A stretch of DNA of 64,000 nt, from positions 165,854 to 229,853 of the forward strand of contig JACKGQ010000001.1 in assembly GCA_020631905.1 (NCBI GenBank), read 5' to 3'. Within the stretch, counting starts at the first letter, position 1. Each line of letters begins with the position of its first letter. The notes below the pieces were generated by a model that had not been told where the DNA came from, did no database searches, and saw only the letters and a list, made by a program, of their open reading frames with translations. The position numbers were made by a program, and so were the translations under genes. Positions 52,916 through 62,485 of the stretch are shown piece after piece. The stretch comes from Candidatus Nomurabacteria bacterium (GTDB lineage: Bacteria; Patescibacteriota; Saccharimonadia; Saccharimonadales; VXPC01).

Positions 52916-52975
52916 AACGAGAAAACCCCGAGCCCTGCGAGAGGAACTCGGGGTTCCTCGATCGAGGGGACGGGG
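52916..52975 (-). terminator. T element copy 1: conserved 60-nt GC-rich hairpin plus U-tract
   Basis: Reverse strand, directly after the TAG of ORF 52976-53272: CCCCGTCCCCTCGATCGAGGAACCCCGAGTTCCTCTCGCAGGGCTCGGGGTTTTCTCGTT. 60/60 identical to copies at 54724 and 55399. Confidence 0.8.
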
Positions 52976-53272
52976 CTAGTTGACAGCGTTGACGCCGTCG
53001 TCTGTCTGCGTGAAGCGATCTTCGGGACTGGCATCAGGAGCTTCCGCACGCGCCCGGGCTGCCGCAATCGCCATCTCGCCCGCACGGTTAAGTACAAGGT
53101 CGCAGAAAGCCATCACGATCTGGGCCAGGAACACGTCTTCGAGCTCGGTACCACCACTGACTGCCACTACCAGGTATGTGACCGGATCGTAGATCCCGCC
53201 GCGCCACGGATAGTAGCCATCGGCTACATTGAACATCATCGGGTAGCTCGCAAGCGCAGTGGAGCTATCCAT
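52976..53272 (-). CDS. GC-rich orphan protein (98 aa, acidic, soluble), cargo a
   Basis: Intact ORF with visibly higher G+C than its flanks. The stop abuts T copy 1. GGAAG RBS and an ATAATGTA -10-like box upstream. No recognised domain. Confidence 0.6.
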   Translation of the reverse strand: MDSSTALASYPMMFNVADGYYPWRGGIYDPVTYLVVAVSGGTELEDVFLAQIVMAFCDLVLNRAGEMAIAAARARAEAPDASPEDRFTQTDDGVNAVN

Positions 53273-53387
53273 TCGAGCTTCCGCTTATATAACATCTGCA
53301 TATATAGCACAATAGGATGGCTACATTATGCCGATTTTTGAGCCTAGATGTATAAAAATAAGCATTTTTGTGTTACTATCTGGCTAG

Positions 53388-54497
53388 ATGATAAATCGTC
53401 AAATCACCGACTCTATTCGGCAACGTTTAAATAAAGGTAAGGTAATTATCTTGGTCGGGGCGCGTCAGGTTGGCAAGACCACCCTGACCAACCAACTAAT
53501 CGCCGACTACCCCGCCGAACAGGTCTTCAGCATAACTGGCGATGACTTCGAAACTCAGCGTTTAACCAAAATGCCTGCCAGCGAGATTGAGGCTCTGATC
53601 GAGCCCTACACCTGTATCTTGCTTGACGAAGCTCATAAGGTTAACCGAATTGGCGATATTGTCAAAGCCCTAGTCGACAAATATGGCGACCAAAAACAGA
53701 TAATTCTAACTGGCAGTTCGACAATTGGTTTGGTCGACAAAACCAGTGAGCCACTGACTGGCCGCAAACGAGTTTTTGAGTTATATCCGCTCAGTACCAA
53801 CGAACTCGAGTTGTATGGTGAGGCTCTGCGTAGTCGTTTACCCGAGTTACTGACTTATGGTCTCTACCCAGAGGTGGTTAATGCATGCGATGAGATTGAT
53901 AAACGTGATGCAATCCTCGAACTGGCACGCAGCAGCCTCTACCGCGATGTGCTCGATGTAACCGGTGCTCGGGCTAGCGGCGACTTGGTTGCGCTGCTTC
54001 GCTTTCTTGCTCAGAGTATCGGCGAAACATTGTCGATCAACGAAATCAGTCTCAAGTTGAGTATTGATAGGCGGACGATCGATCGTTATATCGACCTGCT
54101 CGCCAAAAGTTTTATAGTTTTCCCACTTATGCCCTATTCGCGCAGCGACAGCAGCCTACGGCGGTCTTACAAGGTCTATTTTTGGGATGTGGGTGTACGT
54201 AACGCCATTTTGGAAGATTTTACTCCGCTCGAAGAGCGCAGCGACACCCAGGCTCTGTTCCAAAACTTTGTGATTGCCGAGCGCATGAAAAATGCTCATT
54301 ACCGGGGCGATCTAACTCATTATCACTTCTGGCGCAGTTACGACGGTGCCGAGGTCGATTTGGTCGAGATTCGCAACCAAGCAGTGCATGGCTTAAAGCT
54401 TAGCTACGACGGCCGCTATATGCGTGAGAGTAAGTTGTTTGATAAGCTCGAGCCAACCAGTTATAACGAAGTTACTCCAGACAATTTACAATTTTAA
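53388..54497 (+). CDS. AAA+ ATPase with C-terminal DUF4143-like domain
   Basis: 369 aa. Walker A GARQVGKTTL and Walker B ILLDEAHKV. The overall layout matches the widespread stand-alone ATPase family of this type. Confidence 0.7.
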   Translation: MINRQITDSIRQRLNKGKVIILVGARQVGKTTLTNQLIADYPAEQVFSITGDDFETQRLTKMPASEIEALIEPYTCILLDEAHKVNRIGDIVKALVDKYGDQKQIILTGSSTIGLVDKTSEPLTGRKRVFELYPLSTNELELYGEALRSRLPELLTYGLYPEVVNACDEIDKRDAILELARSSLYRDVLDVTGARASGDLVALLRFLAQSIGETLSINEISLKLSIDRRTIDRYIDLLAKSFIVFPLMPYSRSDSSLRRSYKVYFWDVGVRNAILEDFTPLEERSDTQALFQNFVIAERMKNAHYRGDLTHYHFWRSYDGAEVDLVEIRNQAVHGLKLSYDGRYMRESKLFDKLEPTSYNEVTPDNLQF

Positions 54498-54527
54498 TAG
54501 TTTCTAAAGCAAAGCTTTAGTTTTCAT

Positions 54528-54703
54528 TCTTACTTTTGGCGGGCAAAAGTAAGACAAAACCTCTCGGGTAATACCAAAAACATAACTAGCAAAAGCACTA
54601 GCAGTTAACCTGTTGTCTTGCGGAACTTGCTGGTATGCTGCCAGCTGCAAACAGTCCTCGACAACATGCTAGCTACTACCACTTTTGCTAATCAGTTTTT
54701 GTC
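54528..54703. repeat. L element copy B (most divergent)
   Basis: P1 TCTTACTTTTG/CAAAAGTAAGA, P2 GACAAAAC/GTTTTTGTC, P2b CTAGCA/TGCTAG, P3 GTTGTC/GACAAC, P4 GCTGG-TATGCTG-CCAGC. The same conserved loops are present: TTGCGGAACTT, TGCAAACAGTCCTC, TTGCTAATC. Confidence 0.75.
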
Positions 54704-54723
54704 AGACCCGATCATTATTTAGA

Positions 54724-62001: not shown

Positions 62002-62068
62002 AACAGGGCAATTATAACAGAAGTAATTAGATGTATCCTCTTTTGAAAGTAAAACATTAAATCTCATT

Positions 62069-62260
62069 CTTCTATTTTTGAATAGACCAAAAACAGAAGC
62101 AAAAAAGTCTTCTAGCCACTCCAGAACAAGAGGACTATCAACCCGAGCTTAGTAAAATCTGGTAGCCGCGGAACTCAGGCTAGTAAACTAGCCCTCAAAC
62201 AGTCCTCGCCACCATACTTTACTAACCACAGTTTGCTAATCTGTTCTGGAGAGATGCTGG
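62069..62260. repeat. L element copy C
   Basis: P1 as in copy A. P2 CTCCAGAAC/GTTCTGGAG, P2b TTAGTAAA/TTTACTAA, P3 GGTAGC/GCCACC (one A.C pair, which is G.U on the reverse strand), P4 GGCTAG-TAAA-CTAGCC. Loops CGCGGAACT, CAAACAGTCCTCG and TTGCTAATC. Confidence 0.75.
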
Positions 62261-62305
62261 ATTATTGTGACTGAGAGGTATTAGATTACGTGATAACAGG
62301 GGTAG

Positions 62306-62329
62306 AAAATGTTTCACGTGAAACATTTT
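62306..62329. repeat. Perfect 24-bp palindrome
   Basis: AAAATGTTTCAC|GTGAAACATTTT, centred on CACGTG, in the spacer between L copy C and T copy 4. Confidence 0.9.
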
Positions 62330-62425
62330 AACACACTCAAAATCGCTCTAATGCGTGAGTGTGCAGACATTTTCTATAACCACGTTTTTGTTTACGTATG
62401 AATTATAACATAAGCTTTTAGAAAT

Positions 62426-62485
62426 AACGAGAAAACCCCGAGCCCCTGAGAGGGCTCTAGGGCTCTCGATCAGAGGGTTACGGGG
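62426..62485 (-). terminator. T element copy 4 (diverged, structure retained)
   Basis: AACGAGAAAACCCCGAGCCCCTGAGAGGGCTCTAGGGCTCTCGATCAGAGGGTTACGGGG. It shares both ends with copies 1-3. The internal hairpin is changed to GAGCCC/GGGCTC. The U-tract is retained on the reverse strand. Confidence 0.65.

Follow-up and report, generated by a model that had tools for sequence, protein, structure and literature searches.

A narrow-lineage terminator-like element behind GC-rich orphan genes in Candidatus Saccharibacteria

Closest described systems

Intrinsic (Rho-independent) terminators are formed by a GC-rich hairpin that ends at a U-rich tract, immediately 3' of an open reading frame (ORF) and co-oriented with it. 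The element considered here, T, has this layout and occurs in four copies in a 64,000-nucleotide stretch of one Candidatus Saccharibacteria genome (contig JACKGQ010000001.1, positions 165,854 to 229,853); this whole stretch is called the window below. We read T, with a probability of roughly 0.6, as a lineage-specific intrinsic terminator module that forms the 3' end of small promoter-ORF-T cassettes at intergenic hot spots. Saccharibacteria and other bacteria of the Candidate Phyla Radiation (CPR) have tiny, streamlined genomes, and to our knowledge little is known about the gain and expression of new genes in them.

Ordinary intrinsic terminators differ from T in that they are not 100% identical behind unrelated genes and do not make up a family with invariant ends and an invariant centre. 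T is further distinguished by a long, interrupted stem of 22 bp, a short run of four U and a built-in TAR stop triplet.

The attC sites of integrons are also imperfect palindromes, of about 60 nt, that lie 3' of unrelated small ORFs, often starting from the stop codon, and build stacks in the same orientation. T belongs to the same size class (~57-141 nt) and has conserved ends, a variable centre and a conserved fold in the alignment of its family (alignment A4). Unlike attC, it lacks the RYYYAAC/GTTRRRY core sites and ends in a U-tract; no IntI-type integrase and no attI were seen. The T cassettes differ from those of integrons in carrying their own promoters and in numbering only one to four per site.

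Repeated palindromes just downstream of genes are known as the repetitive extragenic palindromic (REP) sequences and bacterial interspersed mosaic elements (BIMEs) of enterobacteria, the inverted pairs of the DNA uptake sequence in Neisseria and the Correia elements. They can terminate or stabilise transcripts, as is proposed here for T, and their copies are homogenised within a genome. These repeats reach hundreds to thousands of copies behind core genes, whereas the four T copies found in the window stand behind GC-rich orphan ORFs in three neighbouring gaps. Genomic islets at recombination hot spots between core genes, where homologous recombination in naturally transformable bacteria turns accessory genes over, are the last comparable system. 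As with the T cassettes, variable small genes occupy the same core-gene gaps, which are empty in more distant relatives. Here, unlike in such islets, each gene comes with a promoter-like site of its own, ends in the terminator module common to all and has a GC content raised by 0.10 to 0.14. The kind of element is known; what would be new in T is that, within a narrow lineage, one intrinsic terminator serves several accessory cassettes as their shared 3' end.

Copies of the T element

All copies are on the minus strand. T1 (52916-52975), T2 (54724-54783) and T3 (55399-55458) are identical and lie directly 3' of the stop codons of ORF98 (TAG), ORF140 (TAA) and ORF157 (TAA), respectively. T4 (62426-62485) is a diverged member of the family, 4 nt 3' of the ORF70 stop in the gap between tsaD and valS. 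The 60-mer CCCCGTCCCCTCGATCGAGGAACCCCGAGTTCCTCTCGCAGGGCTCGGGGTTTTCTCGTT has three exact matches in the window and none in 100 shuffled sequences. T1-T3 are all inside 2.6 kb, and all four copies are inside 10 kb, the other 54 kb of the window being free of T. The GC content of T is 0.65. T4 is 60% identical to T1-T3 without gaps and 81% with gaps; kept in all four are CCCCGT at the 5' end, GATCGAG in the centre and the final 20-21 nt. Exact search and alignment thus bear out the description in the earlier note, which was made from the sequence alone, of three identical 60-nt copies and a fourth with kept ends. Two further details of that note were also recovered: the 12-nt palindrome CCTCGATCGAGG, found in T1-T3, and the different inner hairpin of T4 (GAGCCC/GGGCUC), which appears in its minimum-free-energy fold.

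The repeat is present in independent assemblies. Contig JAGQNT010000157.1, from the metagenome-assembled genome (MAG) of Candidatus Saccharibacteria bacterium HKST-UBA75, runs across T1-T3 and has the unique flanks seen in the window. The same junctions and identical T copies recur in independent contigs from Logan and ENA, so the repeat is not an assembly artefact. Most of these contigs end at T, as is expected because T is a repeat.

The boundaries of identity are sharp. A TAR triplet stands immediately 5' of CCCCG in six of seven copies and is kept even where no ORF ends there (the variant T147a of a relative, see below) or where the ORF has stopped earlier (T4). In T1 and T2 the identity reaches beyond the 60 nt by six more 5' bases (CAACTA) and one more 3' base; the common CAAC-TAR gives a terminal Asn to both upstream proteins.

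Fold and terminator anatomy

The RNA of T1-T3 is predicted to fold into one nested hairpin of about 22 bp, with CCCCG/CGGGG, CCCCUCG/CGA.GGGG and GAGGAAC/GUUCCUC pairings. The fold has -30.1 kcal/mol against -19.9 +/- 2.9 kcal/mol for shuffled sequences (z-score -3.5 for T1), and the hairpin stops immediately before UUUUCUCGUU. All five variants of the T family, counting those of the relatives, form a nested hairpin closed by CCCCG/CGGGG, with -21 to -29.5 kcal/mol. In each of them this stable GC-rich hairpin ends right at the U-rich tract. T is 3' of its ORF and co-oriented with it, starting 0-4 nt after the stop in the window. Of the variants in the relatives, T147b follows its ORF at 1 nt and T146 at 13 nt, and no ORF ends at T147a. 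A scan with a terminator consensus flags the T copies and yields 18 sites in 52.4-63 kb, where 10.4 +/- 2.8 are expected. On this anatomy T is a probable intrinsic terminator, as had been proposed from the sequence. If the hairpin closed by CCCCG/CGGGG forms, RNA polymerase would terminate at the U-tract, and this would insulate the downstream and convergent core genes from the inserted cassette.

Termination at T is predicted from the structure, and several observations sit less well with a plain terminator. The U-tract is short, four U followed by CUCGUU. When the full-length element is folded to minimum free energy, the partner of the conserved GAUCGAGA in four of the five variants is UCUCG in the U-tract, and termination by itself does not account for this kept double complementarity. 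The same consensus scan finds no enrichment of terminators in the native sequence at 32.5-52.4 kb (23 sites against 20.7). Sharp boundaries and the TAR triplet suggest a discrete copied or mobile unit, not ordinary terminator evolution. The species-representative MAG HKST-UBA75 is fragmentary and has no match to T4; the copy count covers this MAG and the 64-kb window.

The earlier note had described two mutually exclusive folds in T1-T3. A second fold does exist, AACCCCGAG/CUCGGGGUU, which reaches -26.6 kcal/mol when extended and has a probability of about 0.10. The GAGGAAC/GUUCCUC helix is not its separate rival; it is the tip of the nested hairpin, whose pair probability is about 0.89. Because the alternative helix takes in the U-tract itself, it could not arise before the polymerase had moved beyond the point of termination. 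For this reason it is no classical antiterminator and cannot pre-empt the terminator hairpin. No competing structure was found before the U-tract, and Rfam gave no match at the gathering score or at E < 5. A wider Rfam 15 search of the window, T, the L element described below and 20 related loci (gathering score; E < 5-10) returned nothing relevant, only chance matches to microRNA and long non-coding RNA families with E of about 1-3.

Cassettes with GC-rich orphan ORFs

Every T copy of the window stands behind a GC-rich orphan ORF. The ORFs before T have a GC content of 0.55-0.60, with up to 0.71 at third codon positions, in a genome of 0.46. The short upstream regions vary in GC content: 0.36 for ORF98, 0.45 for ORF140 and 0.50 for ORF157.

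ORF98 (52976-53272, minus strand, GC 0.60) is the gene of the first cassette, between the AAA_14/DUF4143 gene and the HTH-HAD gene, and its context is the same in three independent samples. A sigma-70-like promoter match lies at 53325-53354 (minus strand; a consensus match only). ORF140 (54784-55206, minus strand, GC 0.60) encodes a predicted membrane protein; its promoter-like site is TAGACA-16-TATGAT with an upstream TG (55323-55350, minus strand), and the cassette ends in T2. ORF157 (55459-55932, minus strand, GC 0.56) is preceded by TTGATA-16-TATAAT (55994-56021, minus strand) and closed by T3, after which the promoter of the next cassette follows. The T3 and T2 cassettes thus make a head-to-tail stack in which each unit is closed by T. 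ORF70 (62490-62702, minus strand, GC 0.55) is a small membrane-like ORF with TCGACA-17-TATAAT and an upstream TG (62746-62774, minus strand), followed by T4. Since each unit has a promoter-like site, a GC-rich ORF and T, it looks like a self-contained cassette.

ORF98, ORF140, ORF157 and ORF70 have no similarity to one another. The same island also holds GC-rich ORFs without T (56223-59163, minus strand), including ORF775 and ORF82. ORF775 has no T and carries its own CCCCGGGG hairpin at about 56770-56805; its weak TPM domain is the only Pfam or PHROG assignment obtained for the GC-rich ORFs. Apart from itself, no homologue of ORF775 was found. ORF157 retrieved only itself from 5.8 billion clustered proteins and from an HMMER search of 1.84 billion representatives, bar a weak match (E 7e-6) confined to 58 residues of a protein of 4089 residues. 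No donor of these ORFs emerged from the Pfam, PHROG and protein-database searches. BLASTN of T plus L, and of a GC-rich relative of L, against phage and plasmid collections gave no match.

The non-coding segments on both sides of ORF82 are conserved with a 73% relative (window 56472-56760 and 56060-56222, minus strand; 2880-3098 and 3360-3514 of its locus L147). The 5' leader ends in a hairpin plus U-run (AACCGGCAC...GCCGGTTTTTT); the 3' segment, of about 150 nt, ends in CCTGC...GCAGG plus CCTTT. These segments may be structured RNAs or an attenuator.

Comparison with relatives

For comparison, neighbourhoods were taken from genomes chosen by the identity of their ValS to that of the window (63%, 65% and 73%). 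The 63% relative (loci L148 and L149) has the compact order tsaD, 196 nt, valS, 5 nt, AAA_14/DUF4143 gene on the opposite strand, 57 nt, HTH-HAD gene, and no cassette, T or L was found in these gaps. In the 65% relative (L151-L153) the gaps are filled with other repeats, with no T and no L; a separate check of these loci for T-family motifs was also negative. The other repeats of L151, at 4119-4467 and 7051-7247, are long inverted arrays of short tandem repeats (gttagatgttagatg...catctaacatctaac; cagtgaacagtgaacag) in the places of the window's cassette gaps.

T is present in two 73% relatives. Downstream of tsaD, the locus L146 has a promoter, an ORF of 136 aa with GC 0.60 and a T variant (T146) that is 90% identical to T4 in the same tsaD-valS gap; the ORF is unrelated to ORF70. 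In the valS-AAA gap of L147, an ortholog of ORF82 (ORF86; 70% identity, GC 0.58) is followed by T147a, which is 87% identical to T1-T3 and equivalent in position to T3. The AAA-HTH gap of L147 holds a homologue of ORF70 (38% identity, E 4e-10) with its own promoter and the more diverged T147b. Altogether the T family comprises five distinct sequences in three genomes. The variants of the relatives are 69-90% identical and have the same fold, with invariant CCCCG, G(A/C)TCGAG and GGGG plus U-tract and a variable interior. In the consensus structure (alignment A4) there are 19 pairs, three of them with compensatory changes, and the closing helix does not vary. As T3 corresponds in position to T147a and T4 to the T of L146, the T family is at least as old as the split at about 73% ValS identity.

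ORF82 and ORF86 have diverged about as far as ValS, and both have a GC content of 0.58. The GC-richness of the cassettes is therefore stable and not simply a sign of very recent import; foreign origin or GC-biased conversion at recombination hot spots are possible causes.

The window has a single perfect canonical parS site, TGTTTCACGTGAAACA, at 62310-62325, which is between T4 and L4 and upstream of valS. The site is exact at the same place in L147, while L146 and L148 have degenerate parS-like sequences which the parS pattern does not match. The site suggests that the region is near the replication origin.

Distribution and spread of T

The 20-nt 3' end of T was found in a single contig among 185,579 species genomes in a GTDB scan, namely JAGQNT010000157.1 of the same organism, with three copies. 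No match to it was obtained in IMG/VR. Among about 150 loci, regular expressions for the T family match only the population of the window itself (the window, L001-L005 and L022) and the two 73% relatives. A common species-specific terminator repeat behind ordinary core genes, the result that the earlier note had named as damaging to its proposal, is not what these counts describe: T occurs nowhere else in the window. The link of T to GC-rich cargo holds up, as T follows GC-rich orphan ORFs in the window and also in the two relatives. The supposed link to L does not, since the relatives carry T and have no L.

In the best reading, the gaps around tsaD, valS, the AAA_14/DUF4143 gene and the HTH-HAD gene are cassette hot spots of one Candidatus Saccharibacteria lineage, and cassettes probably turn over at those around valS. 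The contrast between perfect identity of T and diverged surroundings, noticed before, is real and points to recent copying or conversion. The identity of T1-T3 would fit recent intragenomic copying or gene conversion better than three independent acquisitions. A T resident at the valS-AAA gap may have been copied or gene-converted within the genome recently, and this copying would have overwritten the 3' ends of the neighbouring cassette ORFs. As all cassettes of the pool are closed by a member of the T family, T might also offer portable homology over 50-60 nt, through which RecA-dependent recombination may swap the promoter-ORF part before a resident T.

Alternative readings

T could primarily be an attC-like recombination site, termination being a side benefit. 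Crossovers inside T or beside it would let cassettes be taken up, exchanged and stacked at the hot spots, either through a site-specific recombinase or through RecA-dependent or homology-facilitated recombination after natural transformation, which is assumed for this organism from knowledge of other Saccharibacteria. The reading has its attractions: unrelated ORFs have in common an imperfect palindrome of about 60 nt with conserved ends and a variable interior that still pairs; the T3 and T2 cassettes follow each other head-to-tail; identity breaks off sharply at the edges of T, and the TAR triplet is built into the 5' edge. The relatives add to this. The tsaD-valS gap keeps its T between genomes while the promoter and ORF before it are replaced, cassettes of the ORF70 family are found in different gaps of different genomes, and the cassettes are insertions in comparison with the more distant relatives. 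However, the sequence at the ends is wrong for attC. The flanks before CCCCG are GTCAACTAG, CCCAACTAA, GTGATTAA and TTAATTAG, without RYYYAAC, and the 3' GTT is followed by TAT, TCT, ATA, ATT, AGT or TTT, never by RRRY, so that no copy fits both core consensus sites. The cassettes have promoter-like sites of their own, which integron cassettes do not. The genes examined in 42-64 kb include no recombinase, transposase or reverse transcriptase, and the proteins of this segment contain no recombinase domain; direct repeats or target duplications are absent beside T. The orthology of ORF82 and ORF86 at about the divergence of ValS also indicates that some GC-rich units are old residents. An attC-like primary role is thus unlikely. 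A related proposal, that T is the recombination handle of a gene-cassette system in Saccharibacteria which is independent of an integrase or uses an unknown recombinase, is held to be quite unlikely; its stop triplet, hairpin and U-tract would serve as a portable 3' module for promoter-ORF units docked at a few core-gene gaps.

T could instead be a 'stop plus terminator' mobile unit resembling a miniature inverted-repeat transposable element, which inserts into or behind ORFs, truncating and terminating them. It is a discrete unit with sharp edges and three identical copies, its hairpin arms resemble terminal inverted repeats, TAR is at the 5' edge, and T1 and T2 give the upstream proteins the same C-terminal Asn-stop. 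Against such a unit, the flanks show no target-site duplication and no transposase is nearby; there are only four copies in 64 kb, with the 20-mer confined to one contig in GTDB (three copies). The copies of the relatives are at equivalent positions, which is consistent with vertical descent and local copying. Mobility of this kind appears very unlikely.

No better founded is a role of T as an element of the 3' untranslated region for stability or protein binding, its GATCGAG centre and closing helix being read by an RNA- or DNA-binding protein, for example in the protection of cassette mRNA or in the silencing of foreign-looking GC-rich genes. The invariant CCCCG, GATCGAG or GCTCGAG, and GGGG-U-tract exceed the needs of a terminator, and the conserved GAUCGAGA/UCUCG helix would bury the 3' end of the terminated RNA. 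No candidate binding protein was identified, conservation over only five closely related sequences is a weak sign of constraint, and most of the features are accounted for by terminator geometry; we regard this role as very doubtful.

A conditional terminator or attenuator with regulated read-through into L or downstream genes, as the earlier note had imagined for L, is scarcely credible: the second fold is within reach (-26.6 against -30.1 kcal/mol and about 10% occupancy in T1-T3; pairing of GAUCGAGA with the U-tract in the full-length folds of the other four variants; both complementary segments conserved), but it is the less stable fold in T1-T3 and needs the U-tract, no ligand-binding or leader-peptide features and no Rfam match were found, T3 and the T copies of the relatives have no L downstream, and L, with its own hairpin plus U7, is an independent family.

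The reading of T as the terminator module of cassettes has consequences of two kinds. Three neighbouring gaps in one lineage hold compositionally distinct orphan genes, each with a promoter-like site and a common terminator-like module, and the content of these gaps varies among close relatives. If T does no more than terminate, it shows neatly how inserted genes can be kept apart from essential neighbours (valS, tsaD), and it gives the emerging genetics of these organisms a terminator that is ready for use. Should cassette exchange run through T as well, this would be a new mechanism of gene capture, and a true recombination handle would be a functional analogue of the integron attC in CPR. 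The cassette hot spots and the L family are the more promising leads, and the L family merits a study of its own.

The L element

Three copies of a second element, L, are present near the T copies on the minus strand. L1 (52640-52850, core 52766-52804) is separate from T. L2 (54500-54706, core 54620-54660) is absent from the same position in L147. L4 (62040-62254, core 62168-62208) is parted from T4 by about 184 nt of native sequence including the parS site. The cores have the form CGAGGACTGTNTG-hairpin-AGTTCCGC, and compensatory changes are seen in each of the two flanking helices. In the window, the hits of covariance model R1 are L1, L2 and L4 and no others, and it has none in the relatives.

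A functional unit of T and L is not upheld. T3 and the T copies of the relatives have no L, native sequence with parS separates T4 from L4, and the L family occurs without T. The L-type family (CGAGGACUGUNUG-hairpin-AGUUCCGC) and T have CGAGGA...GAGTTCC in common. The shorter CGAGGA...AGTTCC is found in the window only in L1, L2, L4 and T1-T3, against 0.17 expected occurrences, where the T copies count as one independent event. T itself is matched neither by covariance model R1 (E > 10) nor by an nhmmer profile of composite members; descent of T from a collapsed or deleted L-type element is thus unsupported. L as a pre-existing landing pad of cassettes was likewise rejected, as L is missing from the relatives whose cassettes carry T, and L4 does not adjoin T4.

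The L family is very widespread and crosses phyla. Cores with the nearly invariant CGAGGACUGUUUGAG...CGAGUUCCGCAG occur at at least 120 metagenome loci, on contigs with a GC content of 0.32-0.64 among the matches listed, and in several IMG/VR contigs. The contigs of the family resemble CPR, Bacteroidota, Pseudomonadota and Bacillota; the related loci are L007, L016, L017, L024-L143, L144, L145 and L154-L170. The more general centre CUGUUUGAGCG-N-AGCGAGUU (CUGUUUGAGCGNAGCGAGUU) is placed inside long hairpins in replicons of Ralstonia, Variovorax, Parabacteroides and Butyrivibrio and in 17 viral contigs. Six short unannotated matches to the core are in plasmids or chromids of these four genera. 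A U-rich stretch and a conserved AU-rich hairpin often follow 3' of the centre, also in the copies of the window. The core is absent from the E. coli genomes and the phage collection searched, the family is absent from Rfam 15, and no trace of the core strings was found in the literature; a 2026 preprint on intergenic features had no bearing on them.

Covariation is strong in both helices of 45 diverse members: the score is 0.49, compared with 0.12 for shuffled and 0.06-0.12 for slid controls, and double changes occupy 83 cells versus 28. In its orientation to the genes beside it, L mildly favours their 3' ends, and a strand test by G-U content weakly favours the motif strand. All-against-all BLASTP of the neighbouring ORFs at 120 loci revealed only housekeeping genes and no recurrent family as a protein partner. 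A single syntenic copy is seen in some CPR contigs, and tandem or mosaic arrays are seen in other genomes. L could be an RNA gene, a mobile palindrome or a protein-binding DNA site.

On the plus strand, the far ends of L2 (54504-54520) and L1 (52642-52656) fold into a short hairpin immediately behind the convergent AAA_14 and HTH-HAD genes. The L2 hairpin CTAAAGCAAAGCTTTAG is followed by TTTTCATTCTT; that of L1, GAAAGCAAAGCTTTC, is followed by CATCTCACTCTT, with no U-run. At L2, the element may supply a terminator for the convergent core gene.

Two members of the family have an unusual setting. In L043, a Gammaproteobacteria-like contig, a tandem array downstream of phoR (9480-11000) consists of three units of about 430-700 nt, each with an L-type hairpin and a second, unrelated long palindrome (TTTTGTTTTCCAGAC...GTCTGGAAAACAAAA); the mosaic layout is BIME-like. 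In L010, an AT-rich viral contig, an L-type core GGCGAGGACTGTCTGAGCGAAGCGAGTTCCGCAGC (about 10292-10321, minus strand) is within the apparent coding region of a topoisomerase I (topA-like) and could be an in-frame insertion.

Other features of the window

Over about 13 kb of the window, between 3700 and 16870, neither strand has an ORF of more than 111 aa and Rfam gives no match, which is unusual in a streamlined genome. The segment has the look of coding sequence broken by many frameshifts or by pseudogenisation, or of a large non-coding region. At 42281-45455, beside very large ORFs at 27-42 kb, five consecutive paralogous genes encode proteins with a C-terminal T4SS_pilin domain (PF18895), and the region is presumably a type IV secretion-like locus.

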